NCBI GenBank assembly: GCA_964406405.1
Contig: CAYORN010000002.1
Span: 64,161 to 128,160, forward strand
Length of the DNA stretch: 64,000 nt
Direction of reading: 5' to 3'
Origin: an uncultured Alphaproteobacteria bacterium
Lineage (GTDB): Bacteria; Electryoneota; RPQS01
Shown here: piece by piece, positions 1,232-42,140 of the stretch
Position numbering within the stretch: the stretch's first letter is position 1
Layout of the letters: each line of letters opens with the position of its first letter
Notes under the pieces: model-generated
Told to the model about the DNA's origin: nothing
The model's database searches: none
Seen by the model: only the letters and a program-made list of their open reading frames with translations
Position numbers and translations under genes: made by a program

Positions 1232-2647
1232 ATGCAACGATCGTATAGCATTTTACTGCTTCTGCTGGCGATAGTAACTCAGACCTGGGCACAAGCCCCG
1301 GATACCTTGTGGACCAAGGCCTACGGCGGTGCGACGGACGATTGGGGATACGACATCATTCAAGCCGCCGACGGCAACTTTGTGATTTCCGGCGCCACCA
1401 AATCCTACGGCACCAACCCGACCTCGGGTAATGCCTGGATTTTGAAAATTGACGGCAACGGTGACACGCTGTGGACGAAGGTCTATGGCGGAACCGGCGG
1501 TGAGGACGTGGACGCTATTCAGCAGACCAGCGACGGCGGTTACATTCTCGCCGGCTACACGAACACGTCCGGTGCAGGGGGTGGGGATTTTTATGTCTTG
1601 AAGCTCGACAGTCTCGGCGACTTGCAATGGTCGCGGACATACGGCGGCGCAAGCCATGAGGAGGCCCGCGCGGTGCAGCAGACCAGCGACGGTGGTTACA
1701 TCATCGTCGGCTACACCCGCTCGTTCGGTGTTGGCGTTCCCAACTACGAGAACTTCTATATTGTCAAAACCAACTCCGCCGGCGATACATTGTGGACGCG
1801 CACCTATGGCGGAGCCAACGGTGAGACCGCCTACGGTGTCGTTGATCAAATGGGGGATGGAGGTTACATGGTCGCGGGTTACACCGGCTCCTACGGAGCG
1901 GGCAGCACCGACGCTTGGCTGCTCAGACTCAATGCCTCCGGCGACACGCTCTGGACGCGCACCTACGGCGGCCCCAGCGGCGATGGAGCCTACTGGTTGA
2001 CTCGCACCGGCGACGGCGGCTACGTGCTCGGCGGAACGTCCGCCTCGTTTACGCCCGGCATTAACGATCTGTATCTGGTGAAAGTGGATTCGGCGGGCAC
2101 GCAGCAATGGTCACGGCACTACGGCGGTACCGATCACGATCAGGGTTTTTCCGTGCAACAGACGTATGATGGCGGTTACATTCTCGCCGGCATCACCAAG
2201 TCGTTCGGCCCGGGCATCCCGACAAACAACAACTACTTCATCGTCAAAACCAATGCCGCAGGGGACTCGCTCTGGAGCAAAGTGCTGGGCGGCGCGTCCA
2301 ACGAAGTCGCCAATGCCGTTCGGCAAGTGGATGACGGCGGCTACATCGTCGCCGGCTACACGCGTTCGTACGGCCCCGGCACACCGAATGCCAACATTTA
2401 CGTCGCGCGCCTCGCGACGCAGGTCACGCTCGTCACACCTGAGCGCCTCGTCACGCTCTTCCGCAACGACAGTCTGATCTTTTGGTGGGACAACGATTCG
2501 AATCCGTTCTACCGTCTCTACAGCGATCTCGCCGTCACCGGCCCCTTCTCCACACTCGAAGGCTCCACCGCCGACACCACATTCGTCATCACAAGCCCGG
2601 TCGCCCTCCGCCGTTTCTATCGCGTCGTCGGCAGCGTTGGTCCCTAA
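1232..2647 (+). CDS. secreted beta-propeller-like repeat protein (seven ~48-aa repeats)
   Basis: N-terminal signal peptide MQRSYSILLLLLAIVTQTWAQA; tandem repeats with core G[DT]TLWT+[TV]YGG...DGGY[IV]..GYT.S[FY]G; paralogous repeat architecture in 16280..17779. Confidence 0.7.
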   Translation: MQRSYSILLLLLAIVTQTWAQAPDTLWTKAYGGATDDWGYDIIQAADGNFVISGATKSYGTNPTSGNAWILKIDGNGDTLWTKVYGGTGGEDVDAIQQTSDGGYILAGYTNTSGAGGGDFYVLKLDSLGDLQWSRTYGGASHEEARAVQQTSDGGYIIVGYTRSFGVGVPNYENFYIVKTNSAGDTLWTRTYGGANGETAYGVVDQMGDGGYMVAGYTGSYGAGSTDAWLLRLNASGDTLWTRTYGGPSGDGAYWLTRTGDGGYVLGGTSASFTPGINDLYLVKVDSAGTQQWSRHYGGTDHDQGFSVQQTYDGGYILAGITKSFGPGIPTNNNYFIVKTNAAGDSLWSKVLGGASNEVANAVRQVDDGGYIVAGYTRSYGPGTPNANIYVARLATQVTLVTPERLVTLFRNDSLIFWWDNDSNPFYRLYSDLAVTGPFSTLEGSTADTTFVITSPVALRRFYRVVGSVGP

Positions 2648-2735: not shown

Positions 2736-4340
2736 TCATTTCAGCAGCACGAGTTTTTGCAGTGCGTGCGGACGGTTGCCAATCGGTTGCCAGACACGGA
2801 CGAAGTAGATCCCCGAAGCGAGACGCGACCCGTCAAACGTAATGGTCTTCTTATGCGCCAAGGGTCCAGACCATACTTGCTGCACTCGGCGACCCAGAAT
2901 GTCAAACAACTCGACTTTGACAATCGCAATCTCGGATGGAATCAACGTCAGCGTGACGGAGGAGTTGAAAGGATTAGGGAAAGCTACAAGCGTGAAACGA
3001 TCCGGCAACGGAGCAGTGATACCACGGACGCTGTTGTAGAACGTGGTATCCGTGTACCAGGGATCAAAGAGTGCACCTCCGCGCAGTTCCGCCCCCTGCC
3101 CCGTGGGATTACGGGCGTTGTTATAAGGGCCCGAGGCATCCCCCCACCAGTTCCAACGGGCATCGCTGTTTCGAACGGTGTCCTGCGTCAAGATGGCGAA
3201 ATCTCCAGCTTCAAACAGATTCTCGTGCAGATCCGTGCCGCTCCAGTAGTAGCCTATGCAGCAACGGTCATGAGGCAAGAGCCCCACGAACCGGTTGCGG
3301 GTCAGCGTTGTGATCGGATCCGTATGCAATGCTTTGATGCCGGGGTCGAGACCCACGTTGTTACAAAAAACATTTCGCTCGATGATTCCAGTATACATGC
3401 AATCGGGCGGGTCTAGGGAATCATTATTCGGCGCATGAAAATCTACGCCCACGTCCCCGTTAATGGCCGTGTTATCGGAGATCAGGTTGTCGCTGAAGAC
3501 GATGGTGTCCTCACAGGCTGCCTCGCAGTTCAGAAGATGGGTGTTCGTCTGAATGTGGGTGAAGGCACAGCGCTCAATCCGTCCCCGAAACAGTTCAAGG
3601 TCGAAAGGAATGAAGACCTGCGCGGGGCCGCCGCAGGAATCAAAAACACAGTCCAAGAGACTGCATTCTCCCAACGCAGCGAGAGTTTCAGCGGGAAAGG
3701 AACGGCCGAATACGCATCGGCTGAACGTTGCGCCCCGCATCCCCGTGTGGACCAACGGGACAAAGTGCTGCACCGTTATGCCGCTAAAGTAGCAGTCTGT
3801 GGCCGTGAGACGTCCAAATTGCGAATGAACCGCATAAGCCTGCGCATCAACAAAGTGACAGTGATCAAGCGTGATGGTGCCACTATCCGATTGCAGGCTG
3901 CGATACGCTGAATCGAAAATACAATGCCGAAAGACGCGGTCGCCCGCCGAATGCACTCCGCCGATGGCGTCATCGAGCCTCGGGTACATTTCGGCCCCAT
4001 TACGAAACCGCAGATCTTCGTAGATCTGCGGTTGAAGAGTCCGTGTAGTCAGGCAGGTCAGGTGATCCGAACCCGAAAGAGACGAAGGATCAATGACAGG
4101 ACGCGGATAATCTCCGGTATCAGGTGGCACGTCACCTTTCAGAACGAATGGCAAGGCCGGAGCGATCAACGCTTCCGAATACGTGCCAAGGGCTACAAGG
4201 ACCGTGTCCTCAGCCTGCACGGCATCCAGAGCTGCCTGAATAGTAGAGTAATCCTGCGGCACGCGCCGTATGACAGCGCCTGAGTAATTGTTAAGAGAAA
4301 ATAGAACGATCAGCGTCAGTTGCAAACCCACGTACCGCAT
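2736..4340 (-). CDS. T9SS-sorted secreted right-handed beta-helix (pectin-lyase-fold-like) protein, paralog A
   Basis: signal peptide; N-terminal ...PQDYSTIQAALDAVQAEDTVLVALGTYSE typical of beta-helix surface proteins; C-terminal Por/T9SS sorting domain FPNPFNSS...IYFVRVWQP...LQKLVLLK; about 100 nt at the 3' end nearly identical to 5010..6620. Confidence 0.75.
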   Translation of the reverse strand: MRYVGLQLTLIVLFSLNNYSGAVIRRVPQDYSTIQAALDAVQAEDTVLVALGTYSEALIAPALPFVLKGDVPPDTGDYPRPVIDPSSLSGSDHLTCLTTRTLQPQIYEDLRFRNGAEMYPRLDDAIGGVHSAGDRVFRHCIFDSAYRSLQSDSGTITLDHCHFVDAQAYAVHSQFGRLTATDCYFSGITVQHFVPLVHTGMRGATFSRCVFGRSFPAETLAALGECSLLDCVFDSCGGPAQVFIPFDLELFRGRIERCAFTHIQTNTHLLNCEAACEDTIVFSDNLISDNTAINGDVGVDFHAPNNDSLDPPDCMYTGIIERNVFCNNVGLDPGIKALHTDPITTLTRNRFVGLLPHDRCCIGYYWSGTDLHENLFEAGDFAILTQDTVRNSDARWNWWGDASGPYNNARNPTGQGAELRGGALFDPWYTDTTFYNSVRGITAPLPDRFTLVAFPNPFNSSVTLTLIPSEIAIVKVELFDILGRRVQQVWSGPLAHKKTITFDGSRLASGIYFVRVWQPIGNRPHALQKLVLLK

Positions 4341-4822
4341 ACATCCTCCGTTCGCCGGTATACTCGGCCCAACGAAGAGCAGCCATCAGGAGTGCACGTT
4401 GGGCAGGGATCGCCGACGGCGCAGGGAATCTTGGCTACTCTGATGGTGTAGGTGACGTTTGGCACCATACGAACGTTCTGGAACAGGTTGGTACATATGC
4501 TGGAGGCGCAATTTAAGGTGTGTGGGCTGGCAATGGGCGTCGGGTTTCCCGTCTCGAAGACCATAACGCACGTCCGGAACGCGGCACAGGAACAGTTGCT
4601 GGGGTTCTGACAACTCGTGGTTGCACTTACCTGATAGAGCGTGTCGCAAGGAACTTGAAAACTCTTCGACACCCAACCCGTCCAATCACCAATTGCACAA
4701 TCACCAGTATTGCAGACCTTGTCGCAGATAGTAATGCAAAAGGCGCAATCAGGCCGATCGCCCTGCGCCCAAAGCAGACTGCTCAAGGCGAGCAGTGCAA
4801 GTAAGACAAAAAGTACTTTCAT
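4316..4822 (-). CDS. small Cys-rich secreted protein (about 20 Cys in ~145-aa mature chain), unknown function
   Basis: start taken at MKVLFVLLALLALSSLLWAQ (signal peptide) preceded by GGGAGG RBS; overlaps the downstream beta-helix gene start by 25 nt (translational coupling). Confidence 0.65.
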   Translation of the reverse strand: MKVLFVLLALLALSSLLWAQGDRPDCAFCITICDKVCNTGDCAIGDWTGWVSKSFQVPCDTLYQVSATTSCQNPSNCSCAAFRTCVMVFETGNPTPIASPHTLNCASSICTNLFQNVRMVPNVTYTIRVAKIPCAVGDPCPTCTPDGCSSLGRVYRRTEDVCGTWVCN

Positions 4823-4883
4823 GATGTGCCTCCCAATACTTGGTTGTTGCCTCGCCGGAGTCGTTCCGGCAAGCGGCACACTT

Positions 4884-4911
4884 AAATTATGCAAAAAAAA
4901 CGGCTTGTCAA
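4884..4911 (-). promoter_or_regulatory. sigma70-like promoter (TTGACA-16nt-TAATTT) inside the conserved 80-nt upstream repeat
   Basis: minus-strand ccggcTTGACAagccgttttttttgcaTAATTT about 60 nt upstream of the start at 4822; the -35 box sits in the palindrome CGGCTTGACAAGCCG. Confidence 0.5.
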
Positions 4912-4970
4912 GCCGGTCAGTTTAAAGAGCCACGCATCTACAATCCAATAATCTATCAGCTTAGATATTG
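4891..4970. repeat. 80-nt conserved upstream module, copy 1 (identical to 7162..7242)
   Basis: gcaaaaaaaacggcttgtcaagccggtcagtttaaagagccacgcatctacaatccaataatctatcagcttagatattg repeated verbatim upstream of both Cys-rich genes. Confidence 0.85.
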
Positions 4971-5009
4971 ACGTGGAATGTCTAAACTGCTTCCCGAATC
5001 AGCCTCCTG

Positions 5010-6620
5010 TCATTTCAGCAGCACGAGTTTTTGCAGTGCGAGCGGACGGTTGCCAATCGGTTGCCAGACGCGGACGAAGTAGATGCCAGAGGAGAGATGC
5101 GAACCATCAAAGGAAATCTTCTTTTCATAGGCCAGCGGGCCGGACCAGATCTCCTGTGCTCTTCTTCCCAAGATGTCGAATAGCTCTACTTCTACTATCG
5201 CAACCTGCGAAGGAATCAGTTTGAGCGTGACGGTGCTGTTGAAGGGATTGGGATAAGCGTCAAGAGTGAAGGCGACGGGCAGCGGTGGCTCAATCTCGTG
5301 CACCGACAGAAATGAGGTGTCCTCATACCACGGTTCGAACAGCAAGTTCCCCTGCACTTCTTCGCCTTGTCCTTGCGGATTTCGTGTTACGTGGAAGGGC
5401 CCGGTGTGATCGCCCCACCAGTTCCAACGCGCGTCTACGAATTCATTCCCCTGCACGGCCACGCCCACTTCATCAAACAAATTCTCGCGCAAAAGCAAAC
5501 TGTCGTCAGGAGATTCCCAATCCGGCCATTGCAGCCGGACAGCCGGAAGTGTATCAGGTTGGAGATCAACAAAACGATTGCGCTGCAAGTTGGCGCCGAC
5601 TCCGTCCGAATGCACCGCCTTGGCGTCCTCCACACTGATCGAATGCTGAAAGCTGTTGCCGCGGATCTCCACGACCTGTCCACTCCCCATCCCTTCTTCC
5701 CATTGCAGATGCAGCGCGTTGCTGATCTGACTCTGGTTGGCCGGGTGGTTGTGTTCAAAGGTGTTGTTCAAAATGCGCAGGGGCGGCTGTCCTTCCCGCA
5801 GTACTGCGTACAACGCGGCCTCGCCCGCACTGCATTGCACAAACAGGTTATCTTTAATCTGCCCGTTGATGGTAGCCATCAGTGCTGCCCAGAAAAGAGT
5901 ATCCGGGCCAAACACACAATTCTCAATGAAGATATCGTCTCCCGAAGCGTGCAGCAGATACATGCCGTTTCGAGTTCCAGCAAAATGGCAGCCGGTGAAG
6001 CGCGAGCCAGTGTAAGCATACGCCAAAATGCTGCCCCCGGACAAGTAGCAGTCCGTGACCTGCCAGACGGTCTGAGGGCTTCCGAGCAGACACCAGGCCG
6101 TGTCGCTTCGAAAAAGGCACTCCGAAATCGTGATGCGGGCTTCGTTTGTGTCCGGGAGCTGCCGCAAACCGACATAGACGGAATCGAATAGGCATCGCTG
6201 CAACACGACATCCAGCGCCGAGCTGCGAATACCGCCAAAGTCCTCGGGATGGGCACGCGGGAACATCTCCGGCCCATTACGAAATCTGAGATCTTCAATT
6301 ACCGGGCGAGCGCCCGCCGGCAGAATCAGACAGGCCAGCGAATCGGAACCCGGGAGAAGGGTCGGGTCGATCACAGGCCGCGGATATTCGCCCGTATCCG
6401 GTACGGTATTCCCCTTGAGCGTAAAACGCAGCGGAGGCGCACTCAGCGCCTCCGCATATGTCCCAAGATCTACCAATACCGTGTCACTCTCCTGCAGGCT
6501 ATCCAGTCCCGCTTGGATCGTCGGCGCCTCTAAGGGCACATGGATCACCCGAGCTACGGCAGGAGCCGCCGCTGCAAGCAGGATCAGAGCCCGGGAAAGG
6601 CGGCGAATCATTGCCCGCAC
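5010..6620 (-). CDS. T9SS-sorted secreted right-handed beta-helix protein, paralog B
   Basis: signal peptide MRAMIRRLSRALILLAAAAPAVA; IHVPLEAPTIQAGLDSLQESDTVLVDLGTYAE; C-terminal YPNPFNSTVTLKLIPSQVAIVEVELFDILGRR...IYFVRVWQPIGNRPLALQKLVLLK. Confidence 0.75.
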   Translation of the reverse strand: MRAMIRRLSRALILLAAAAPAVARVIHVPLEAPTIQAGLDSLQESDTVLVDLGTYAEALSAPPLRFTLKGNTVPDTGEYPRPVIDPTLLPGSDSLACLILPAGARPVIEDLRFRNGPEMFPRAHPEDFGGIRSSALDVVLQRCLFDSVYVGLRQLPDTNEARITISECLFRSDTAWCLLGSPQTVWQVTDCYLSGGSILAYAYTGSRFTGCHFAGTRNGMYLLHASGDDIFIENCVFGPDTLFWAALMATINGQIKDNLFVQCSAGEAALYAVLREGQPPLRILNNTFEHNHPANQSQISNALHLQWEEGMGSGQVVEIRGNSFQHSISVEDAKAVHSDGVGANLQRNRFVDLQPDTLPAVRLQWPDWESPDDSLLLRENLFDEVGVAVQGNEFVDARWNWWGDHTGPFHVTRNPQGQGEEVQGNLLFEPWYEDTSFLSVHEIEPPLPVAFTLDAYPNPFNSTVTLKLIPSQVAIVEVELFDILGRRAQEIWSGPLAYEKKISFDGSHLSSGIYFVRVWQPIGNRPLALQKLVLLK

Positions 6621-7093
6621 GGCACGATCTGCCCGTACCGCAGACAGGCATAGGCGACGCAGTTGCCGTTACAGTGGTCGCAATTCGGCTCGTCGTGGCA
6701 TTTCACCAGACAAACATACAGACGATACGAATGACCAGACACAAGGTTCACAGAGCACGTGTTGTTGCAATCGCCGGTGTCGCAGCCATTATTGTGGCAA
6801 CTGCCACCTTGTATCAGTTGCCCGTTCTCATAGACATAGGCACAAACTTCACAACCGCCGCAATCCGCGCCGTCCGGACACTTAACCCAAACATCAAAAG
6901 CATAGGTCGCGGTGCAGGATGCGGTGAACGCTTGAGCACTACACCCCGTGAGATCATTGTTGCACTCTATGCTCGAACAGCCGGTATCTTGTCCGCTGAT
7001 GAAATCGGAACAATCAGGACTGTCCCCGCCTCCTTGCGCCCACACTCCGCCTGTGATTACAAGAATTACTGCCACCAAGAATAACGCCTTCAT
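6608..7093 (-). CDS. small Cys-rich secreted protein (about 21 Cys), second type, unknown function
   Basis: signal peptide MKALFLVAVILVITGGVWAQ; 13-nt overlap with downstream beta-helix gene; same operon layout as 4316..4822. Confidence 0.65.
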   Translation of the reverse strand: MKALFLVAVILVITGGVWAQGGGDSPDCSDFISGQDTGCSSIECNNDLTGCSAQAFTASCTATYAFDVWVKCPDGADCGGCEVCAYVYENGQLIQGGSCHNNGCDTGDCNNTCSVNLVSGHSYRLYVCLVKCHDEPNCDHCNGNCVAYACLRYGQIVPCGQ

Positions 7094-7154
7094 GTTCCTT
7101 CACCTTACAAATTAGCTTGCCTGCCAGCGGCTCTATGTACGCAAGCCTGCATCC

Positions 7155-7242
7155 AAAGTAAGCAAAAAAAAACGGCTTGTCAAGCCGGTCAGTTTAAAGA
7201 GCCACGCATCTACAATCCAATAATCTATCAGCTTAGATATTG
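7155..7242 (-). promoter_or_regulatory. conserved upstream module copy 2 with sigma70-like promoter (TTGACA-17nt-TACTTT)
   Basis: identical 80-nt repeat to 4891..4970; -35 TTGACA at about 7178-7183. Confidence 0.5.
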
Positions 7243-7279
7243 GCACTGAATATCCAACCTGCCGCCTCGTCACCGTGAA

Positions 7280-8938
7280 TCAGAACTTCACCTTGCGGTT
7301 CAGCGGGAAGCGGATGGTGAACGTGGTGCCTTCGTTGGGTGCGGATTCGACAAAGATTTCCGCGCCGTAGCGCGCGAGGATATTGCGGGTGCTGGCGAGA
7401 CCTAAGCCCGTGCCCGCCGGCTCACCCGGCGCGGCCTCAGCGGCTTTCGGCTTAGTCGTGAAGAAGGGAGTGAAAATCCTGTTCTTGACCTCTTCGCTCA
7501 TCCCGCAGCCGGTGTCACCGACAGTGATGAGCAGCGCCTGCTCGTCGTGCGATGTCCTGACGGTCAGTACGCGCGTCTCGCTATGGAACATCGCGTCAAT
7601 CGCATTGCGCAGGAGATTGCCGATGACCTGCGAAAAGTCAATGTATACGCCATGGATCAGCGGCGCTTCGGAGTCAAGTTCGATCTCCTTCTTCACATTG
7701 TGCTTGAAGAAAAGGTTCGCGTCAAGGAACTGCAGTTCGGTCTTGATGATCTCTTCCACCGAGAGATCCTGCGGCGCGCTCTCCTGCTCGTTGCGCGATT
7801 TCTTGAGCAGATTGGCGATGATGTCCCGCATCACCAGCGCCTGCGAGCGGATATGCTCGATCTCCTTCATGTCGGGTCGCGTGAGCTGCAATAGATCGCA
7901 GAACCCCAGCACCCCCGTGAGCGGGCCGTTCAGGTTGTGCGCAATCCCCGCCGAGAAGGTGCCGAACTCCGCGAGCTTGCTTTCGCGCATCAGCTCGATC
8001 TCCAACTGGTGGTTCTGCTGCTCGATCACCTTCTGGTCCGTGATGTCCTTCGCCATCAGCATCACCGTCGAGCGCCGCCCGGATTCGAAAAGGAAACTGC
8101 GCGTCACAAGGAAGATTCGTCCGTCCCCGTTGTCAATTTCGATCGTCTTGCCTTCATACGCCGAGGTCAACCCCTGCAAATCGGACTTGTCGTGCTTTGC
8201 GAAGTCGTTGAGCCAGCGGTGACACACGATCGGCAGTTCATACGGCTCGAACTTCTGCTCCGCGGCCGGATTCGCATACAGCACGTCGCCCGACGGCGAG
8301 AGCAGCACCAGCGTGTCGCGCATCGAGCGGATGAACAGATTCAGCCGGTCGCGCTCGGATCGCAGATACCGTTCCGTTGCCGCCCGCTCGCCGATATCGC
8401 GTCCCACCAGAATTGCAAACTTCCCGTTCCCGGATTTCGATTCCGACGACGTAAATTCGATCAGCCGCGGCCGCGTGTTCGGAATCACGCAGGGCAACTC
8501 CAGTACATGCACGCCGCCCGCGCCCGCATCCTCAAACAGCGTCCGGGCGATCTTGCGCTCGGAATCATTGAAGAATTCGAGAAATCTGCGCCCGTTCAAC
8601 TGCTCGTGCGTCAAGCCGGTCCACTCGATGAAGCGCGCGCTGACCTCGATGATTTCCCCTTCTTCGCGATGCAGCACGACGATAGCATCCGGCCCCTCCA
8701 AGAGCAGGTCGAGCAGCTCGGGGGGCTCCTCTTCCGCCACCTGTTCCGTGACCGAGGGTTCCGGCGTTGTCGGCAACCCGGCCCGTCGCAGCCGTGAGCC
8801 GCCGAGCAGATTGTCCACAAAATCCGCCAGCCCGCGTGCTCGCTCGCCGGGGGGGACGCCCACAGGCGAAGCCGGAGATGATCCGGCCGCTTGCGGGTTG
8901 GGTGCAGAAGGGTTATCTTGAGGGGGCTTATGTGTCAT
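7280..8938 (-). CDS. cytoplasmic PAS-domain sensor histidine kinase
   Basis: H-box FSAGIAHNLNGPL; HATPase_c motifs GDTGCGM..., GTGLGLA; Pro-rich N-terminus and no TM segment; no cognate response regulator adjacent. Confidence 0.85.
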   Translation of the reverse strand: MTHKPPQDNPSAPNPQAAGSSPASPVGVPPGERARGLADFVDNLLGGSRLRRAGLPTTPEPSVTEQVAEEEPPELLDLLLEGPDAIVVLHREEGEIIEVSARFIEWTGLTHEQLNGRRFLEFFNDSERKIARTLFEDAGAGGVHVLELPCVIPNTRPRLIEFTSSESKSGNGKFAILVGRDIGERAATERYLRSERDRLNLFIRSMRDTLVLLSPSGDVLYANPAAEQKFEPYELPIVCHRWLNDFAKHDKSDLQGLTSAYEGKTIEIDNGDGRIFLVTRSFLFESGRRSTVMLMAKDITDQKVIEQQNHQLEIELMRESKLAEFGTFSAGIAHNLNGPLTGVLGFCDLLQLTRPDMKEIEHIRSQALVMRDIIANLLKKSRNEQESAPQDLSVEEIIKTELQFLDANLFFKHNVKKEIELDSEAPLIHGVYIDFSQVIGNLLRNAIDAMFHSETRVLTVRTSHDEQALLITVGDTGCGMSEEVKNRIFTPFFTTKPKAAEAAPGEPAGTGLGLASTRNILARYGAEIFVESAPNEGTTFTIRFPLNRKVKF

Positions 8939-9094
8939 ACGTTTCGCGCCATACTCAGGAAATGCTTGCCCCCTGCTCAGGCAGCAGAGGTGAGGTGCCT
9001 GTCGGCGTGGATGCAGCTAATTGTAGCAAAGCTCTAAGGTTTGATCCACGGTTAACGATAGGATAGTACGACCTTTTCATTTTGAGCAATTCTG

Positions 9095-10246
9095 ATGCCA
9101 TTTCATTTGTATATGCATATGCCATATTGCCGACGAAAATGTCCCTATTGCGACTTTTTCAAAAAAGTCCCGCGAGCGGGCGAGCGTCAGCGCTTTGTCG
9201 CAGCCCTTGCAAAAGAAATGAAATTAGCGGCTCAGAATTATCTTTGGGCGTCCGGCTCCCCGGCCACGATCTATTTCGGCGGCGGCACTCCGTCGCTCCA
9301 TCCAACCGAAGAAATCGCGAATCTGCTTTCGTGCGTATGCGACACGTGGGGAAATGTCAACACGATGGAAATCACGCTGGAAACGAATCCCGGCACCGTG
9401 GATCTGAACACGCTGCAGGGTTATCGCGCCGCGGGGATCAATCGTTTGTCCATTGGCGCGCAGTCATTTCACTCACGCAAGCTCGCGATGTTGTATCGTG
9501 ACCACACGGTGGAAGAGACACGCGAGTGTGTGCAAATCGCCTGCGCCGCGGGCCTGCGCAACCTCTCCCTTGATCTTATTTTCGGCTTGCCGGGCGAAAC
9601 ACTTGAGGAATGGACGCAAGATATTTACCATGCTCTCGCGCTTAACCCTGAGCACGTCTCGCTGTATAATCTGGAGTTCCACGAAGCCACGCCGTTTGGA
9701 CGCTGGAAACGCACCGGACGCCTCTCGCCGCTCGATCCAGATCTCGAGGCGGAGATGTATTTGATGACGCACGAAATTCTTACGGAAAATGGGTTCGAGC
9801 ACTATGAAGTCTCCAATTTTGCCAAGCCGGGATTTCAGAGCGTACACAACTCCGCCTATTGGAAGGGCTGTCCGTATTTGGGGCTTGGTCCATCTGCCCA
9901 CTCGTTTGACGGCCACACGTTGCGAATCGCCAACGTCGCCGACATACCCGAGTATTTCCGCGCACTCGACGAAGACCGTCTCCCGGTTCATAAGACCACG
10001 AGCCTTGACGAGCCCACGCGGCGCGAAGACTGGATCAGCTTACAACTGAGAAGGAGCGAAGGGATCAGTTATCACGATGCCGTGAACGTCTTAGGTGTGA
10101 AAGAAACAGCGCAATTGTGGCTACGTGCTGAATCCTTGCCCGAATCCACGCGCGTGTTGACGACCGATCGGTTCCATCTGACGGCGGCAGGCTGGTTTCG
10201 CGAAAACACCATCCTTCTCCATCTCGCCGATGCTGTTCATTCCTGA
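9095..10246 (+). CDS. hemW: radical SAM protein, HemW-like (coproporphyrinogen III oxidase-like / heme chaperone)
   Basis: N-terminal YMHMPYCRRKCPYCDF (CxxxCxxC radical SAM cluster motif); 383 aa; HemN/HemW-like C-terminal domain. Confidence 0.8.
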   Translation: MPFHLYMHMPYCRRKCPYCDFFKKVPRAGERQRFVAALAKEMKLAAQNYLWASGSPATIYFGGGTPSLHPTEEIANLLSCVCDTWGNVNTMEITLETNPGTVDLNTLQGYRAAGINRLSIGAQSFHSRKLAMLYRDHTVEETRECVQIACAAGLRNLSLDLIFGLPGETLEEWTQDIYHALALNPEHVSLYNLEFHEATPFGRWKRTGRLSPLDPDLEAEMYLMTHEILTENGFEHYEVSNFAKPGFQSVHNSAYWKGCPYLGLGPSAHSFDGHTLRIANVADIPEYFRALDEDRLPVHKTTSLDEPTRREDWISLQLRRSEGISYHDAVNVLGVKETAQLWLRAESLPESTRVLTTDRFHLTAAGWFRENTILLHLADAVHS

Positions 10247-10485
10247 ATATCCCCTGCTTTCAATCGCATGGGTATTCTCGTGATAACAAAGCCCCCCATG
10301 GGGTTAGCTTTTTGTCGGACATTACGAAGAGGCGTCAAATTGGATAACGGTGCTTAAACCAGCCATGACTTTCATGACTCTAAGTGGCAAGGCGGTTGCG
10401 GATTTTGTTTATTTCCCGTATCTTACCGCCGATCCTCTTGATCGCCAACCCTCTTTCGATCCCAATGTTAATAAGGAGTTTGAAA

Positions 10486-11094
10486 ATGCCTCGCCCGTAC
10501 CTATGGGTTGTGTTGCTGTTGTGCGCCATGCTGGCCGTCTCCGGCTGCTCGAGCAAAAAGAAAGTCTCCCGCATTGATGCCGCAGAAACCGTGGACCTGT
10601 CCGGCAACTGGAACGATACCGATAGCCGCCTGGTCGCCGAAGAGATGATCAGCGACGCCTTGTCGCGGCCGTGGCTCGCGAATCACTTGCGCGATGCCGG
10701 ACAGAACCCGGCGGTGATTGTCGGCGCGATTCGCAATTTCTCCGATGAACACATCGCGACCGGCACCTTCGTCGGTGATATCGAGCGCGCGTTTGTCAAT
10801 TCCGGCAATGTGCGCGTCGTCGCCAAGAAGGAGGAGCGCGAAGGCGTGCGCGATGAGCGCCAGGATCAGCAAGCTAACGCTTCAATCGAAACCGTGAAGG
10901 AGTTCGGTCAGGAACTCGGTGCGGATTACATGCTGATCGGCGAAATCAACAAGATCACGGATCAGGAAGGCCGCGAGAAGATCGCCTTCTATCAGGTGGA
11001 TCTCACGCTGACTCACATGCAATCGAACGAGAAGGTGTGGATCGGACAGAAAAAGCTCAAGAAGTACATCGCGCGCAAAGCCTATAAGCCGTAA
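10486..11094 (+). CDS. lpoB: lipoprotein, penicillin-binding-protein activator LpoB-like
   Basis: start at MPRPYLWVV with AAGGAG RBS; lipobox LAVSGC; from memory aligns with E. coli LpoB C-domain (VIVGAIRNFSDEHIATGTF / FVNSGNVRVVA / LGADYMLIGEI / YQVDLTLTHMQSNEKVWIG). Confidence 0.6.
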   Translation: MPRPYLWVVLLLCAMLAVSGCSSKKKVSRIDAAETVDLSGNWNDTDSRLVAEEMISDALSRPWLANHLRDAGQNPAVIVGAIRNFSDEHIATGTFVGDIERAFVNSGNVRVVAKKEEREGVRDERQDQQANASIETVKEFGQELGADYMLIGEINKITDQEGREKIAFYQVDLTLTHMQSNEKVWIGQKKLKKYIARKAYKP

Positions 11095-14373: not shown

Positions 14374-16152
14374 TCACTCCGCGCCTGCGAGCCTTCTTAT
14401 GACATCTTCCATTTTCATTCCTGTTTCCAGGTTGTCAACCCTGGCACCTTCGGCCAGCGCAATCATCTGATAGAACATGCCGCTTGCGTAACTTACAACA
14501 CCTTGATGGACATAATTTGTGCCCGCCGTCCAACCGTGGTAATAAAACGGTCCATTGCCGGACGGAGCATAGAAGACCAAGTACCGTGCCACGGTCACCG
14601 GGCATGCACCTACAGATTGTGTGATTGGATCCCAGTGTAGAACCGCATCCTCACCGGAGATCATAATCACTGACTGAGGAGCTTCCGGCGTGGAGACGCG
14701 TGAGCCTGCCAGCGGAATTCGTACAAATCCATCCGTCTGGTTCGAGGCATCGGACTGAATCAGCAAGGTGTCGTTGTAGCTTCCGTCAATCGCCGGATCA
14801 AAAACGAGAGTCAGGCTGCACGCGCTCATCTGTCCCGGTGCCAGCGCGAACATGCTCGCACATGTGGTCGACAGGGAAAATTCTTCGCTCCCGGGCTCTA
14901 ACGGTTGGAACACTACTATCGCTTGGCTGCCGAAGTTCTTGAGGCGCAAGATTTCAGTATTCGAGGAGGGGCATTCGATCGTTCCTGCGCTCCAGCTGAG
15001 CAGGGCCGTGCCGGGCGCGCTCGGACGGACTAGTGCAAGGTAACCTTGGGAGGGGCCGGAATAGGCGCCAATATCGGCGATTGATCCGTCGATATCGTGA
15101 GCCGATTGCGGATCGCCAGCGTCAATGCAGGGAGAATTCGGGAGAAGACGGAAATCGCCATAGGCCGGATCCACAAGGTTCGGATCGAGAAAGATATTGC
15201 TGTAACCATCGCAAGAGTCACCATTGGCGTTAACGCTATCGATTTGGCCAACGCCGGGGGGGCCTTGCGCCAGATTCGCGATGTTGCCAGCCGAATTGCC
15301 GAAAACGTCGCAGAAGTGGAATGCCGTTTGGGTGGCTGATGCGAAGCGAACTCCTTCTCCAATGGAGTTGGCAACGATGCAGTTGGTCGCCGATCCATAG
15401 CCCCAACTCGAATTTCCACCAATATAGATTCCGCCTCCATTCACCGACGTGTTCCCGTAGACTGTGCAATTCGAAACAACCGGCGAGGATTGGTTCCACC
15501 AGATCCCTCCGCCTCCGTTCGAACTGACGGTGCTATTGTTGACGATAACACAGAAACGTACTGTGGCATTGCTGTGCCAGAAACGCAAACCTCCGCCGTA
15601 GCCGGCAGTGTTGCTCTGGACCAAGCAGTACTCAATTACGGGGTTGCTTAGATCACAACTGATGCCTCCGCCACCTCCAACGCATTGGTTGTTCTGCAAC
15701 AGGCAGTGGGAAATCGTTGGTGAACAAGAGTAACAGAAGACTCCTCCGCCCTCCATGTCATAGCCACTTCCGGTACCATTGCCATACTCGATGCGACAAT
15801 ATTCCAATCGAGAATTGACATTCGCGCTCATGAAGCGTATGCCCCACCACTTCGATGCTTCGGTCGGGTAAGCGCGCGTAAAAATGATTGAATCCGTACC
15901 TGTTCCGATGGCTCGCAACGTTCCATTGACCACGAACTTGTAATGGCCTGTGAATTGTACTTGGACGCCCGGACTAATTTCGAGGGTCTGCCCTGCGGGA
16001 ACGGTGATGTTGCATGTCACCATGTAGGGAGACCCCGCAAGATTCCATATACCGCTCGCGCTGCCACAAACGTCGGTTGCAAGAACTGAGTTTGACCACA
16101 GTAGGCAGAGTAGGATGATTAAGTAGATTTTCTTCAACGCCGTTTCCTTCAC
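14374..16152 (-). CDS. secreted right-handed parallel beta-helix repeat protein (no T9SS CTD)
   Basis: signal peptide KKIYLIILLCLLWSNSVLA; many Gly/Asn-rich beta-helix rungs (CxxxNN, GGGGI, NxxxGGG). Confidence 0.65.
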   Translation of the reverse strand: MKETALKKIYLIILLCLLWSNSVLATDVCGSASGIWNLAGSPYMVTCNITVPAGQTLEISPGVQVQFTGHYKFVVNGTLRAIGTGTDSIIFTRAYPTEASKWWGIRFMSANVNSRLEYCRIEYGNGTGSGYDMEGGGVFCYSCSPTISHCLLQNNQCVGGGGGISCDLSNPVIEYCLVQSNTAGYGGGLRFWHSNATVRFCVIVNNSTVSSNGGGGIWWNQSSPVVSNCTVYGNTSVNGGGIYIGGNSSWGYGSATNCIVANSIGEGVRFASATQTAFHFCDVFGNSAGNIANLAQGPPGVGQIDSVNANGDSCDGYSNIFLDPNLVDPAYGDFRLLPNSPCIDAGDPQSAHDIDGSIADIGAYSGPSQGYLALVRPSAPGTALLSWSAGTIECPSSNTEILRLKNFGSQAIVVFQPLEPGSEEFSLSTTCASMFALAPGQMSACSLTLVFDPAIDGSYNDTLLIQSDASNQTDGFVRIPLAGSRVSTPEAPQSVIMISGEDAVLHWDPITQSVGACPVTVARYLVFYAPSGNGPFYYHGWTAGTNYVHQGVVSYASGMFYQMIALAEGARVDNLETGMKMEDVIRRLAGAE

Positions 16153-16279: not shown

Positions 16280-17779
16280 CTACTTCAGATATAGGACCTT
16301 TCGCGTAACTCGTTCGCTGCCATAGCGGAATTCAACGAACTGAACTCCTGTGGTAAGCAGTTCGCCCTTCGCAGCGCCATAGATGAAGCGCTGTGTTCCG
16401 GGAGCCGCTGACTTCTGCGTGTGATATGCAACTTGACCCAAGGCGTTGTGTACCGTGATTTCCACCGCTCCGGCTTCCGGCACTTGATAATCAAAGTTGA
16501 TTTCTGAGTTGAACGGATTGGGATAACCTTCGGTCACACGAAAGTCATTCGGCAGCGGCGAATCCTTCGGAGCGGCAAGCACTTCGTCGTCCATGACATT
16601 GCGATGCTCCGGTGGCACTGCATCCAGCTTCACAATATAGAAATTCGAGTTGCCGTTAGTAATTGTGGAGCCGACCGCGACCAAGCCGCCGTCGTTCGTG
16701 GGCTCGAGACTGTATCCAATCTGCTGCCCCGCACCGCCAATATGCCGACGCCAACGCTGCTGCCCACTCGAATTTGTCACGATGAGGAAGAGATCACCGC
16801 TTTGGCCCCACGAGTACGTGTAACCGACGAGGGCAAAACCTCCCTCGGGGAGCGGTACGAAATCACGCGCATCATCGTTCCCGGTGCCGCCGTAGGTTCG
16901 CGTCCAGAGGACGTTGCCGGCGGGATCGGTCTTGACGAAATACGCATCCTTGCCGCCGTGACCCGATGACGTCGTGAACGAGGCGATGCCGAAACCGCCA
17001 TCGGCGATTTCCCGGATTCTGACATACTCGGCAACTCCTTCCGATCCTGCGCCGCCATACGTATGCTCCCAGACGATTTCACCGTCCTCGTCCAGGCGCA
17101 CGACGTAGATATCCGCCGGACCTGAGCCGAATGACGTGGTGTAGCCGGCCACGACATAGCCGCCGTCTTTGAGCACGTCTACGCTGTGGGCGTCGTCGAT
17201 TGCGTATCCGCCATACGACCCATCCCAAGCCACATTGCCGTTCGGGTCCGTCTTCACCACATAATAGGATGCGGGTCCTTGACCGTAAGACCGCGTGAAT
17301 CCCACGATGATGAAACCGCCGTCACGCGTTTGGCGGAGATCTCGCGGTCGCTCTTCATCCGCGCCGCCGTAATCCCTCTGCCAGAGAACATTGCCGTCAC
17401 CGTCGGTCCTTACCACATAGAAATCCCGCGAAAGCGCGGGACTTGAGTTAGATTCTCCACATAAAACAGAACCGCCGTCGCTAGTGACTTGCAGACCTAC
17501 CCATTCGTATCCATCTTGGCCGGTGCCGCCGTATGTCTGAGTCCAAAGCAGATCCCCGCCTGACGACCACTTGGTAAGATACAAGTCATTGCTGCCATGG
17601 CCAAACGATGTTGTCCATCCAGCCACCAGCAGATCACCGTTCGGCAGTTCATCTACGTCTCGCGCTTCTTCATTGCCGGCGCCACCGTGATTGCGAACAA
17701 AGCCGATCCGGTATTGCGCGAGCGCCTGCGCTGTCAAAACCGTCCACCCAACGATGAGAATAACAAGAGAGCGGCCCAT
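16280..17779 (-). CDS. T9SS-sorted beta-propeller-like repeat protein (paralogous repeat family to 1232..2647)
   Basis: start at MGRSLVILIVGWTVLTAQALA (ORF arithmetic; GGAGG RBS); repeats LLWTQTYGG...DGG..L.G.T.S; C-terminal YPNPFNSEINFDY...VEITVHNALGQ...RKVLYLK. Confidence 0.75.
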   Translation of the reverse strand: MGRSLVILIVGWTVLTAQALAQYRIGFVRNHGGAGNEEARDVDELPNGDLLVAGWTTSFGHGSNDLYLTKWSSGGDLLWTQTYGGTGQDGYEWVGLQVTSDGGSVLCGESNSSPALSRDFYVVRTDGDGNVLWQRDYGGADEERPRDLRQTRDGGFIIVGFTRSYGQGPASYYVVKTDPNGNVAWDGSYGGYAIDDAHSVDVLKDGGYVVAGYTTSFGSGPADIYVVRLDEDGEIVWEHTYGGAGSEGVAEYVRIREIADGGFGIASFTTSSGHGGKDAYFVKTDPAGNVLWTRTYGGTGNDDARDFVPLPEGGFALVGYTYSWGQSGDLFLIVTNSSGQQRWRRHIGGAGQQIGYSLEPTNDGGLVAVGSTITNGNSNFYIVKLDAVPPEHRNVMDDEVLAAPKDSPLPNDFRVTEGYPNPFNSEINFDYQVPEAGAVEITVHNALGQVAYHTQKSAAPGTQRFIYGAAKGELLTTGVQFVEFRYGSERVTRKVLYLK

Positions 17780-18005
17780 GGGTACCTCCGCAATTTGCTT
17801 TATGGCCAAATTTAACAGTCAGTGATCTTGGGCGCAAGCACTTTTTGTGATTTCTGTGGCAGTTGTTGTTATTTTAAGTAATTATATAATATGCACTTGT
17901 GCTATCACGTGACAGGATTTGGGGCCATAGAGAGGCATCCCCTCGTAAGATGAGCAAGATATGGTCGAAATACTTATATTTTACGGCTCACATCACTAAC
18001 TAATT

Positions 18006-22243: not shown

Positions 22244-23848
22244 ATGGCTACGCTACATGAGTTCGTGAAAAACAGCCCGATGCTCGCCTATATTGAGAAG
22301 CGCCGGATGCAGGTATCAAAAGTCGCGTCACCCGAGACTCGAAAACATCTCGGTCAGTTTCTTACACCTGCGCCCATCGCTCACTTCATGGCCTCACTTT
22401 TCACATGCAGGTCAAAGCACGTTTTCTTGCTTGACGCAGGGGCTGGCATCGGATCGCTAACGGCAGCATTTGTTGACCATGTTCTTGCCTTGAGACAGCC
22501 CCCGGAATGCGTGTCGGTAGTCATGTGGGAAGTAGACCCGGAAATGCTCGCGCATCTCTCGAATGTGGTAAGACGTTGTCATGATGAATGTCACAAGATT
22601 GGGATCAAGTTCACGGCCGTCATTATTCCGGAAGATTTTACCGAATCCGGTGCAGAGATAATCTTAGACCGTTTATTGGGGAAGCGCACCTATGCCTTCA
22701 ACTGTGCAATTCTAAACCCGCCCTACCGCAAGATTCAGACAAACTCTCCAGAGCGGTTGGCCCTCCGAAAAGTTGGACTGGAAACCAGCAATTTGTACGC
22801 GGGCTTCGTGGGTCTGGCCATCAAACTGCTGAATCCTGGTGGACAGCTTGTCGCAATCACACCGCGAAGTTTCTGCAACGGCCCATACTTTAGGCCTTTT
22901 AGAGAACTGCTTCTGCGGGAGATGCGATTTCGACTCATACACACATTCGAGCGAAGGGATCGAGCTTTCGTCGGCGATGGTGTCCTCCAAGAGAACATTA
23001 TCTTTCATGCCGTCAAGAATACGCGTACCGAAAAGTGGGTTACTATTTCTTACAGTCATGGAGCTGAAGACGCGACGTTGTCTTCCCGAAAGGTGCAGCA
23101 TGATGCCGTGGTATCGTTATCTGACCCAGAGTTGATCGTGCATGTTCCACACAGCAAGTATGACCAGGCCGCACGTGAGAAGATCGACCTGGAAAAGATG
23201 ACTCTCGTTGATTTGGGCATTAGTGTTTCGACGGGCAGGGTGGTGGATTTTAGAGCGCGGGAATTTCTCCGCATGCAGCCGGGCAGTGACACAGCGCCGC
23301 TGATATACCCGCTGCACTTTGAAAGCGGTTTTGTCACCTGGCCAAGATTATCTGCGAAGAGGCCGAATGCCATTGAGGTTAACGACACTACGCGACATAT
23401 GTTGGTGCCCAAGGGGTATTATGTGCTCGTGAAGCGCTTCACTTCCAAAGAGGAACGCCGCCGGATTGTGGCGGTAGTGCTTGACCCTAATCGCATTGCG
23501 GCCCCTGAATTTGCTTTCGAGAACCACATCAATTTCTATCACGCAAACGGACACGGTTTGCCCGAAGCGTTAGCGAAGGGACTTGCGGCATACTTGAATA
23601 CAACGACCGTCGACCGGTATTTCCGGCAATTCAGCGGGCATACTCAGGTTAATGCATCCGATTTACGAAAGCTGACTTATCCGGATCGCGCGGCACTGGA
23701 AGCGATTGGCTCTCAATTAGGTCCAGCGTTTCTCTTTCAGGAAGAACTGGACACACTCGTAGACGAGGAACTCGCATCGTGGCGAAACAAGCAACAAAGC
23801 AGCCAGCCGAAATTCAAAGCCGCATCAAAGAGGCTCTCACTGTTCTGA
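22244..23848 (+). CDS. type II N6-adenine DNA methyltransferase (PstI/BsuBI-like gamma-class)
   Basis: motif I FLLDAGAGIGSLTAAF; motif IV NPPY (AILNPPYRK); 534 aa, close to M.PstI/M.BsuBI size; visibly lower G+C than neighbours. Confidence 0.75.
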   Translation: MATLHEFVKNSPMLAYIEKRRMQVSKVASPETRKHLGQFLTPAPIAHFMASLFTCRSKHVFLLDAGAGIGSLTAAFVDHVLALRQPPECVSVVMWEVDPEMLAHLSNVVRRCHDECHKIGIKFTAVIIPEDFTESGAEIILDRLLGKRTYAFNCAILNPPYRKIQTNSPERLALRKVGLETSNLYAGFVGLAIKLLNPGGQLVAITPRSFCNGPYFRPFRELLLREMRFRLIHTFERRDRAFVGDGVLQENIIFHAVKNTRTEKWVTISYSHGAEDATLSSRKVQHDAVVSLSDPELIVHVPHSKYDQAAREKIDLEKMTLVDLGISVSTGRVVDFRAREFLRMQPGSDTAPLIYPLHFESGFVTWPRLSAKRPNAIEVNDTTRHMLVPKGYYVLVKRFTSKEERRRIVAVVLDPNRIAAPEFAFENHINFYHANGHGLPEALAKGLAAYLNTTTVDRYFRQFSGHTQVNASDLRKLTYPDRAALEAIGSQLGPAFLFQEELDTLVDEELASWRNKQQSSQPKFKAASKRLSLF

Positions 23849-24765
23849 AGGCTATTGGTATGCCCAGAGAGCAGATCAATGAGCGATCCGCGCTGACCTT
23901 GCTTTCACTCGTGGGGCTAAGGCCTCAAGTACGTTGGAAGAGTGCACGAACGGAGTCTCGCGGTGTAACGCAGATGATGGAGTTCATGGCGACCGAATAT
24001 CGGAAACGCTATGCACCTAACACGCGCGAAACCGTCAGGCGATATGCGTTGCATCAATTCGTTCAGGCTGGAATTGCCCTAAAGAATGCCGACGATCCGT
24101 TGCGCCCCACAAACAGTCCGGACACAGTTTATTGTGGAGCACCTCCGCTGCTTGAACTCTTGAAAACTTTTGGAACTACTAAGTGGGAATCAACTCTCCG
24201 CAAGTTCCTTATTGCGCAGCCCGCTCTGAGCCAGAAATATGCCGCCGAACGAACGCTCCCGAGACTAAGAGTCAAGCTTCGAAAAGGACAGAGCATTGCG
24301 TTATCGCCGGGCGGTCAGAATGTACTCGTAAAGCGGATTGTTGAAGATTTCTGTCAGCTTTTTACTCCAGGTGCATCCGTTGTGTATGTTGGCGATACAA
24401 GCAAGAAATGGGCTTACTTTGATCAAGCACTGCTTTCGACTCTCGGCATTGACATAGAAAAGCATGGAAAAATGCCTGATGTCGTAGTGTATCAGGCAGA
24501 GAAGGGTTGGCTCGTGCTGATTGAGGCTATCACCAGCCATGGACCGGTAACTCCAAAACGGCAAAACGAACTCAAGGAGCTATTTGGGAGCACATTAGCA
24601 GGCTTGGTATTCGTCAGTGCGTTTCTGAGCAAGAAATCCCTGTTGAAATACTTGCAGGAAATTGCCTGGGAGACAGAGGTTTGGGTCGCAGAGCATCCTA
24701 CTCACATCATTCACTTCAACGGTGAAAGATTTCTGGGACCCTACGAATCAACGACCAGTGTCTGA
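23779..24765 (+). CDS. putative type II restriction endonuclease (BsuBI/PstI-like); start uncertain (alt. ATG 23860)
   Basis: 328 aa immediately after the MTase; N-terminal KEALTVLKAIGMPREQINERSALTLLSL; PD-(D/E)xK-like MPDVVVYQAEKGWLVLIEAITSHGP; low G+C. Confidence 0.5.
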   Translation: MAKQATKQPAEIQSRIKEALTVLKAIGMPREQINERSALTLLSLVGLRPQVRWKSARTESRGVTQMMEFMATEYRKRYAPNTRETVRRYALHQFVQAGIALKNADDPLRPTNSPDTVYCGAPPLLELLKTFGTTKWESTLRKFLIAQPALSQKYAAERTLPRLRVKLRKGQSIALSPGGQNVLVKRIVEDFCQLFTPGASVVYVGDTSKKWAYFDQALLSTLGIDIEKHGKMPDVVVYQAEKGWLVLIEAITSHGPVTPKRQNELKELFGSTLAGLVFVSAFLSKKSLLKYLQEIAWETEVWVAEHPTHIIHFNGERFLGPYESTTSV

Positions 24766-41117: not shown

Positions 41118-42089
41118 TCACTTAAGAAGCACCAGCTTCTTGGTGTTGGTGAAGCCGTTCACGGAGAGCTTGTAGAGATACACGCCCGTCGCGAGCTTCG
41201 AACCGTTGAACACGACCGAATGCGGGCCACTGCTCATGGGGCCGCTCACCAGCGTGCTCACCTTCTCGCCCATCACACTGTAAATCGCCAGATCCACCGA
41301 ACCGGCCTGCACGAGATCGAACGCAATGCTCGTCTCGGGGTTGAACGGGTTCGGGTAGTTCTGATACAGTGCATAGGCGGTCGGCATCGGTTGCGCACTC
41401 GGACGCACGCCGCTGATCGTCTGCAGTTCTTCGCGGACGCCGTTCACGTCCACGGACACCAGCGTGTAGCTGTAGTCGAGGCCATTGGTTACCAGGTGAT
41501 CGGTCCACGAATAATTGCCGCCAGTGGCCTGGTTCAACGACGGGACATCGGCCGCTCGCACGCCGTCACGCACGATCTCAAAGTGATCATTGCGCGACTC
41601 CGAAGTCGTGGTCCAGTTCAACGTGATCTGGCCGTCCCCCGGCATAGCCGTGAAGCTTTGCAGCTCCGCGGCCAAATAGTGCACAAAACGCATATAGACG
41701 AACAGGCAATTGCTCTCCCCATAATAATCCAGCGGGTAGAACGGATCGCCGCCGAGGACGAGTGCTGCCGGCGGGACAACTGGGCTGCACGTTTCAGTGC
41801 ACGTCGCATTCTGGCAGCCCGGAACCATAGTCACTGTCGGCACACCCTGCGGGCTGTTATCCTGGCTTACGTAGGTCAGGCAAAAGCAACCGGTGCAGAC
41901 GGAAAAGGCCTCAATGGACCAAGTATGTGTGCCTACCAAATTGATGTTCACCACCTCCCCGGCACAGACCTGGATGCACTCGCTGGTGCCGATAAAGACG
42001 GTGTATTCTTCCTCGCACTGTGCCCACGCGGATGTTGCCATCAGCGCCAGCATCAGCACACTAAAGATCGAAACGGTAATTCTCTTCAT
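41118..42089 (-). CDS. T9SS-sorted secreted protein with Cys-rich N-domain and FN3-like domain
   Basis: signal MKRITVSIFSVLMLALMATSAWAQ; FTAMPGDGQITLNWTTTSESRNDHFEIVRDG (FN3-like); C-terminal YPNPFNPETSIAFDL...GVYLYKLSVNGFTNTKKLVLLK. Confidence 0.7.
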   Translation of the reverse strand: MKRITVSIFSVLMLALMATSAWAQCEEEYTVFIGTSECIQVCAGEVVNINLVGTHTWSIEAFSVCTGCFCLTYVSQDNSPQGVPTVTMVPGCQNATCTETCSPVVPPAALVLGGDPFYPLDYYGESNCLFVYMRFVHYLAAELQSFTAMPGDGQITLNWTTTSESRNDHFEIVRDGVRAADVPSLNQATGGNYSWTDHLVTNGLDYSYTLVSVDVNGVREELQTISGVRPSAQPMPTAYALYQNYPNPFNPETSIAFDLVQAGSVDLAIYSVMGEKVSTLVSGPMSSGPHSVVFNGSKLATGVYLYKLSVNGFTNTKKLVLLK

Positions 42090-42140
42090 GGTGTCCTGTC
42101 TCCTTTTGGGGGTTGGTGTGATTGACCTTTTGGGAAACGG

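Follow-up and report, generated by a model that had tools for sequence, protein, structure and literature searches.

We analyzed a 64,000-nt stretch of DNA (hereafter the window) from contig CAYORN010000002.1 of assembly GCA_964406405.1, which is labelled as an uncultured Alphaproteobacteria bacterium. The minus strand of the window holds a tandem array of two head-to-tail units with a direct-repeat period of 2272–2274 nt. Each unit comprises an upstream module with a putative promoter, a gene for a small cysteine-rich (Cys-rich) protein (cys1 and cys2) and a gene for a beta-helix protein (bh1 and bh2) that ends in a type IX secretion system (T9SS) C-terminal domain (CTD). The upstream border of the array is a PAS histidine-kinase gene on the same strand (7280–8938), whose product has a PAS-HisKA-HATPase organization; no response regulator adjoins it. 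The features of the array were as follows.

7262–7165, minus strand: upstream module, copy A, 98 nt, 93% identical to copy B; core at 7242–7165
7187–7164, minus strand: hairpin of unit 1, CGGCTT-GAC-AAGCCG followed by nine T residues, overlapping the -35 hexamer, 93 nt past the stop codon of the histidine-kinase gene
7183–7155, minus strand: putative sigma-70-type promoter of unit 1, TTGACA at 7183–7178, a 17-nt T-rich spacer and TACTTT at 7160–7155
7093–6608, minus strand: cys1, 161 aa, 20 Cys, predicted Sec signal peptide (cleavage near VWA-QG), predicted jelly-roll beta-sandwich
6611–5010, minus strand: bh1, 533 aa from ATG 6611, signal peptide, predicted right-handed beta-helix, type-A T9SS CTD at about 5285–5010
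5096–5010, minus strand: 3′ end of the bh1 CTD, 90–95% nucleotide identity to 2822–2736, putative gene-conversion tract
4990–4893, minus strand: upstream module, copy B; core at 4970–4893
4915–4893, minus strand: hairpin of unit 2, CGGCTT-GAC-AAGCCG followed by eight T residues, 95 nt past the bh1 stop codon
4911–4884, minus strand: putative promoter of unit 2, TTGACA at 4911–4906, a 16-nt spacer and TAATTT at 4889–4884
4822–4316, minus strand: cys2, 168 aa from an ATG preceded by GGGAGG, signal peptide, 18 Cys
4340–2736, minus strand: bh2, 534 aa, predicted beta-helix, type-A CTD
2822–2736, minus strand: 3′ end of the bh2 CTD, partner of the putative conversion tract at 5096–5010
2670–2733, strand not assigned: two GC-rich hairpins between bh2 and the convergent gene at 1232–2647, likely a bidirectional terminator that closes the array

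A preliminary description of this locus had placed paired minus-strand units at 7242–5010 and 4970–2736, and both the open reading frames (ORFs) and the direct repeat agreed with it. Its signal-peptide proteins of 160–170 aa with about 20 Cys were likewise recovered in cys1 and cys2. The gene overlaps of 13–25 nt that it gave were confirmed at one junction. The ATG of bh2 lies 25 nt inside cys2 and has GGAGGA just before it. The longest ORF of bh1 starts at GTG 6620 (536 aa), but a 4-nt ATGA overlap with cys1 is more likely than one of 13 nt, and an independent assembly calls bh1 from ATG 6611.

The pairing of the two genes extended well beyond this array. All 32 non-redundant cys genes, which came from at least 10 metagenome-assembled genomes (MAGs) or metagenomes, were followed by a bh/CTD orthologue on the same strand. 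A check in related genomes had been proposed with the preliminary description, and it found the pair strongly conserved, so the objection that the pairing might be private to this genome does not hold. The pair was recovered from either side. When cys was the starting point, four loci from database matches and eight from a metagenome scan with a sub-family alignment (A6) all had the bh orthologue directly downstream. When bh was the starting point, a scan of one genome per species gave 13 loci with full-length orthologues, each with a cys gene directly upstream, including some where the public gene call had missed it. The genes flanking the pair varied from locus to locus, which indicated that the pair itself is the unit. 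Whole pairs stood in tandem at five further loci (L007, L008, L012, L013, and L015), and one MAG carried at least seven pairs. The identity matrices of cys and bh proteins were correlated (r = 0.56; Mantel test, 0/5000).

Junctions between cys and bh were overlaps of 1, 4, 10, 13 or 25 nt or gaps of no more than 70 nt, with an internal Shine-Dalgarno sequence. These tight or overlapping junctions suggested coupled expression across the loci, and the translational coupling proposed in the preliminary description is consistent with them. A search for Rosetta-stone fusions joining cys to bh gave none: the candidate P0131 was a spurious Ig-repeat protein, and P0079 resembled a frameshift artefact. 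At locus L009, the cys gene of the first pair (3999–4349) is truncated to model positions 58–161; this is a long-read assembly in which frameshift errors are possible. The MAGs with the closest pairs (L007–L019) are labelled as an uncultured Alphaproteobacteria bacterium or simply as a bacterium. Their dense content of T9SS CTD genes renders the Alphaproteobacteria label doubtful, and it is probably a placeholder.

The bh proteins resembled T9SS type-A cargo with a pectin-lyase-fold passenger in having a signal peptide, a beta-helix and a type-A CTD above the cut-offs. Their hydrophobic N-terminus, as read directly from the sequences and the alignment, ends in AVA-R or SGA-V ahead of a conserved RVP motif and is a predicted Sec signal peptide. 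The CTD was assigned to type A by Por_Secre_tail (PF18962; 34.7 bits for bh1 and 33.4 bits for bh2 against a cut-off of 27) and by TIGR04183 (32.5 and 33 bits against a cut-off of 23). The Beta_helix score stayed just under its cut-off. Structure prediction, which was made on database orthologues, gave a right-handed parallel beta-helix resembling polysaccharide lyases, hydrolases and tailspikes, and no sequence-level match to any CAZy-type structure was obtained. The predicted fold is suggestive of a polysaccharide-directed protein. The N-terminal cap contains the conserved motifs RVPxxYxTIQ, GDTVLV, PDTGxYxRPxIDPS, and FRNGxxMxPR, and the C-terminal cap contains DARWNWWGDxTGP...NPxGQGD...PW..DT. 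Most invariant residues are structural and belong to internal ladders of Cys, Phe, and Asn, and the central turns are highly variable. A prophage or tailspike origin of bh was rejected, as a search of viral contigs turned up no bh relatives.

Beta-helix/CTD proteins that are more distantly related occur in Zixibacteria, Ignavibacteria, Gemmatimonadota, and other groups, and these had no partner of the cys family. The nearest partnerless relatives examined (L016b, L020a, and L020b) lacked the PDTGxYxRPxIDPS and FRNGxxMxPR segments. Locus L020 itself contains a three-gene unit repeated in tandem (3773–10561), in which a lipoprotein gene (~215 aa) is joined by a small signal-peptide ORF containing Cys and by a bh-like/CTD gene (5215–6924 and 8729–10561). 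The small ORFs are 112 and 150 aa long, one of them overlaps the bh-like gene by 22 nt, and neither showed significant similarity to the cys family (hhalign probability <1%). Beta-helix cargo of the T9SS may thus have small secreted partners from more than one family.

When cys1 was the sole query of a word-indexed homology search, only cys1 itself was recovered, and it was an exhaustive profile search that revealed the family. At 50% identity it comprises 179 representative clusters, of which 96 lay below 1e-10. The members are almost all 150–170 aa long with a signal peptide. About 17 Cys columns are near-invariant and little else is conserved; a 60-member alignment contained no conserved stretch of 7–10 residues. 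Between cys orthologues, non-synonymous divergence (pN 0.22–0.34) was far below synonymous divergence (pS 0.66–0.86), indicating that the ORF is under purifying selection. The family had no match in Pfam, NCBIfam, PADLOC or the PDB, and a defence-system reading was rejected on the absence of PADLOC matches. Neither cys1, cys2 nor the 60 family members matched Por_Secre_tail or TIGR04183, so the small protein has no CTD of its own. The AlphaFold2 model was a confident eight-strand beta-sandwich of the jelly-roll type (predicted local distance difference test, pLDDT, 90.5). Its best structural neighbours were PPC, collagen-binding, carbohydrate-binding module (CBM) and C1q-TNF-like jelly-rolls, and by this model cys would resemble the accessory domains of those classes.

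The median member carries 20 Cys in 145 residues, Cys makes up 13% of the family overall, and the mature Cys count was even in 102 of 137 members. This parity argues for 9–11 disulfides rather than metal thiolates, and the cys product is probably disulfide-bonded to that extent. It also bears on another explanation, in which cys and bh form a metal-handling pair: cys would bind Cu, Zn or Fe through thiolates, as its CxxC-type spacings might suggest, and exchange the metal with a NosD-like beta-helix. The known counterpart is NosD-NosL, a periplasmic beta-helix and a small Cu chaperone acting in N2O reductase maturation. The bh proteins scored 17 bits against NosD (PF05048), below the cut-off of 23.6, and cys has no lipobox. 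Neither nosZ, nosF, nosY nor nosL neighboured the pair in the loci compared. The even Cys number and the extracytoplasmic location point to disulfides, His (1.8%) and Met (0.7%) are scarce in the family, and the matches of cys to MopE and CorA were generic jelly-roll matches. We regard metal handling as very improbable.

The nucleotide identity between the two units, obtained from a sliding-window alignment, was a mosaic along their length.

78-nt core (7242–7165 and 4970–4893): 100% (78/78)
cys genes: about 40%, near the random level
N-terminal third of bh: 50–70%
Centre of bh: about 40%
CTD: 65–77%, climbing towards the end; 76% over 284 nt
Last 60–90 nt of the CTD: 90–95%

At the protein level, cys1 and cys2 shared 28% identity (E = 4e-14), and bh1 and bh2 shared 42–46%. 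The two Cys-rich proteins are thus distant but clear homologues, contrary to the preliminary description, which took them to be different. Several of its statements on the repeats also needed correction. The identical upstream module of 80 nt applies to the core, whereas the full 98-nt module is 93% identical, and the CTD described as nucleotide-identical rises to 90–95% only towards its 3′ end. Of the two origins it offered for the identical parts, gene conversion or recent duplication, the former was supported and the latter was not. Unit 1 was closest to the pair at L007 (bh 55%, cys 50%) and unit 2 to the pair at L006 (cys 64%, bh 56%). An orthologue of cys2 is P0002 (64%). Each unit is nearer to a pair in another metagenome than to its neighbour in the array; therefore, a recent duplication was rejected and the duplication must be old. 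It follows that the identical patches would be short gene-conversion tracts rather than remnants of a recent copy. Where the amino acids of bh1 and bh2 agree, the codons were identical at 23 of 27 positions within the last 31 codons, compared with 30–50% elsewhere.

The identical repeats did not appear to come from the assembly. A Logan contig (L001), which is an independent assembly of the same organism, breaks exactly at both repeats, which indicated that the repeats are real and made an assembly artefact unlikely. These sequence comparisons indicated that the units are old paralogues of the whole pair, retained in tandem, and that the 78-nt promoter module and the last ~90 nt of the CTD were homogenised by short-tract gene conversion. 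A second tandem array lies at 56566–61120 on the plus strand of the window. It consists of three T9SS type-A cargo paralogues, unrelated to cys and bh, with 29–38% protein identity overall, and it is followed by a TonB-dependent receptor gene (61117–63273). Its junctions, which comprise the 3′ end of the CTD, the intergenic region and the 5′ end with the signal peptide, share 85–93% nucleotide identity; for example, 57855–58154 and 59396–59695 are 93% identical over 300 nt. Homogenised ends with diverged bodies are common to the two arrays.

The 78-nt core occurred just twice in the window, against an expectation of zero, and was absent from all other loci compared. Both copies contained the TTGACA-16/17-TAnTTT sequence that the preliminary description had read as a promoter. 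The -35 hexamer is a perfect TTGACA, both spacers are T-rich, and the putative promoters lie ~90 nt ahead of the cys ATG. The -10 hexamers are weak, and a generic promoter scan did not return these sites because only three of six positions match. Comparison with other genomes lent the promoter reading support. Of 24 non-redundant loci in other genomes, 11 had the pattern TTGAC[AT], a spacer of ~17 nt and TAnnnT at a distance of 70–140 nt ahead of the cys start, while shuffled sequences gave an expectation of 0.68 and a maximum of 4. In most loci this spacer was T-rich, and looser versions of the pattern were visible in most of the remaining loci. We read this architecture as a conserved putative promoter.

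The TTGACA is placed in the loop of a hairpin. The short 6-bp stem with four GC pairs and the run of eight or nine T residues, present in both copies, score as terminator-like on the gene strand and coincide with the promoter. This raises the alternative that the 78-nt module acts chiefly as an intrinsic terminator or insulator, duplicated together with the unit, rather than as a promoter, with unit 2 expressed by read-through or from another start. The position of the coding-strand hairpins 93–95 nt past the upstream stop codons agrees with such a role, as does the outcome of the generic scan. In other genomes, however, the promoter pattern recurs at the same distance upstream of cys, most loci lack the hairpin, and the gene lying upstream is often a different one or is on the opposite strand. 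Moreover, the two roles can coexist. A module that is chiefly a terminator is quite improbable in our judgement; in this genome, the promoter module may double as a terminator or insulator for the upstream gene.

No Rfam family was detected in the region or in the whole window. The 130-nt leader folded no better than shuffled sequences (z = -1.05), and hairpins in the 5′ untranslated regions were not significant across loci. The 5′ leaders of cys, ~50–60 nt long, often open with a GC-rich stem-loop (L012, L013, L015, L016, L018, L019, and the window), and the folding energies of those leaders were not better than those of shuffles (z from -2.8 to +1.3). Between the histidine-kinase gene and the promoter of unit 1 there is also an imperfect palindrome (7229–7241/7249–7261), only part of which is repeated ahead of unit 2.

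The comparisons indicated that each unit is a self-contained and conserved operon of two genes for predicted Sec-exported proteins, which is duplicated and diversifies as a unit. The Cys-rich protein is most likely a cognate, 1:1 extracytoplasmic partner of the beta-helix. As to the kind of partner, we tentatively favoured a subunit that is exported together with bh, a reading to which we give slightly less than an even chance. It was preferred because disulfide cross-linking to such an extreme degree typically marks proteins that have to endure extracellular conditions and because the T9SS handles folded cargo. In this scheme, the sigma-70-like promoter would drive the small Sec-exported jelly-roll protein of ~145 mature residues and then the translationally coupled bh protein of ~530 aa. 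Both products would be made at about 1:1 and fold in the periplasm, where the small partner would be oxidatively cross-linked and join bh in a cognate complex. The CTD of bh would then take bh, most likely with the CTD-less partner bound, through the T9SS to the surface or the medium. Outside the cell, the hyper-stable, disulfide-rich subunit might adjust or widen the specificity with which a polysaccharide-directed beta-helix binds or acts enzymatically. That a genome holds many diversified pairs suggests that the specificities form a repertoire.

The same gene order and fold would also suit a periplasmic inhibitor or immunity protein. Such a protein would be translated first, bind the bh enzyme and protect the envelope glycans of the producer until it is removed by the T9SS, which would export the CTD-bearing enzyme alone. 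Small disulfide-rich proteins are commonly enzyme inhibitors, and plants have proteinaceous inhibitors of beta-helix pectin enzymes. Plant pectin methylesterase with its inhibitor (PMEI), polygalacturonase with its inhibiting protein (PGIP) and bacterial effector-immunity pairs all resemble cys-bh in joining a secreted pectin-lyase-fold protein to a small, disulfide-stabilised, specific partner, and in being co-diversifying and present in many copies. An inhibitor-first gene order with coupled translation, the lack of a CTD on cys, the paired co-diversification with many specific pairs per genome, and a bh fold shared with polysaccharide lyases and hydrolases are all in keeping with inhibition. 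Yet no conserved catalytic constellation was identified in bh, ~10 disulfides seem excessive for a protein confined to the periplasm, and cys resembles no known family of inhibitors. Of the two plant inhibitors, neither is related to cys in sequence or fold, PMEI being a helical bundle and PGIP a leucine-rich repeat protein. The plant pairs also differ in that both cys-bh genes sit in one bacterial operon, where inhibition by cys is hypothetical. With respect to the upstream gene order and the lyase-like fold, the inhibitor or immunity protein does nearly as well as the co-exported subunit; on balance, we consider it possible but doubtful.

The strict adjacency and coupling of cys and bh might instead reflect a helper dedicated to folding or secretion, acting in the periplasm as a private chaperone or adaptor that bh needs in order to fold or to be targeted to the T9SS. 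Its logic would be like that of lipase foldases or of the SprF/PorP-like partners found with type-B cargo. In Flavobacterium, T9SS type-B cargo is known to have adjacent, cargo-specific helper genes. There, SprB and RemA with their SprF/PorP-like helpers, the nearest known parallel, follow the same logic of a private, adjacent and co-diversifying partner gene, but the bh CTD is of type A, which normally works without a private helper. In addition, cys carries no PorP/SprF signature and no Pfam match; it lies upstream and is modelled as a soluble jelly-roll of ~145 aa with ~10 disulfides rather than as a barrel. A chaperone usually has a conserved surface, but conservation in cys lies mostly in the Cys scaffold. 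A helper role is improbable, being less likely than an inhibitor, and metal handling is less likely still.

Several observations weigh against the co-exported subunit. Simple linkage would likewise produce a correlation between the identity matrices. In some loci the genes stand 23–70 nt apart, so coupling by overlap does not hold everywhere, and at L009 a bh orthologue (5917–7518) directly follows another bh with no cys gene before it. The conserved polar residues of bh gather at the two caps and not in the central cleft, so any enzymatic activity of bh is putative. We found no precedent in the literature for T9SS export of a CTD-less passenger. None of the T9SS machinery (SprA, PorV, PorU, and GldK-N) was seen among the window ORFs scanned; the CTD-bearing genes, of which there are at least eight in the 64 kb, argue indirectly for the presence of the system.

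Other genes of the window were noted as well. The genes at 1232–2647 (plus strand) and 16280–17809 (minus strand) encode paralogous beta-propeller-like proteins with 36% identity and DUF5122-type repeats of ~53 aa; only the latter product carries a T9SS CTD, and the former ends without one. Two adjacent T9SS CTD proteins encoded at 41118–43502 (minus strand) are partial paralogues (37% over 247 aa). At 14374–16152 (minus strand), a 592-aa ORF with a signal-peptide-like N-terminus contains 20 Cys and has neither a Pfam match nor a CTD. The plus strand at 22244–24765 appears to encode a type II restriction-modification pair, in which the ORF of a BsuBI/PstI-family endonuclease follows and overlaps that of an Eco57I-like methylase.

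As a rule, T9SS cargo is regarded as autonomous, and a signal peptide together with a CTD is assumed to suffice for export. Known type-A members are described as self-sufficient, whereas the bh orthologues here are preceded by a dedicated, CTD-less Cys-rich gene. No such partner is described in Pfam, NCBIfam, PADLOC, the PDB or the literature searched, in line with the preliminary description, which had called the arrangement undescribed. In a bolder form of the co-exported subunit, the tagless jelly-roll would leave the cell bound to bh as the first case of passenger export by the T9SS, and the co-diversifying pairs would form an unrecognised two-component family for surface or secreted glycan recognition or attack in an uncultured lineage resembling the Fibrobacteres–Chlorobi–Bacteroidetes (FCB) group. 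We think this rather unlikely as it stands.

A family of ~180 clusters at 50% identity is sizeable and unannotated, its Cys density is unusual for bacteria, and its confidently modelled jelly-roll looks new. The homogenised ends of two separate arrays provide a concrete example of how T9SS cargo arrays evolve, in that the bodies diverge while the regulatory and sorting ends stay uniform. A cargo family with a coupled, CTD-less and hyper-disulfide partner suggests that the T9SS may carry protein complexes. Alternatively, some T9SS cargo may need a private inhibitor or helper, or the pair may represent a new two-subunit extracellular module.

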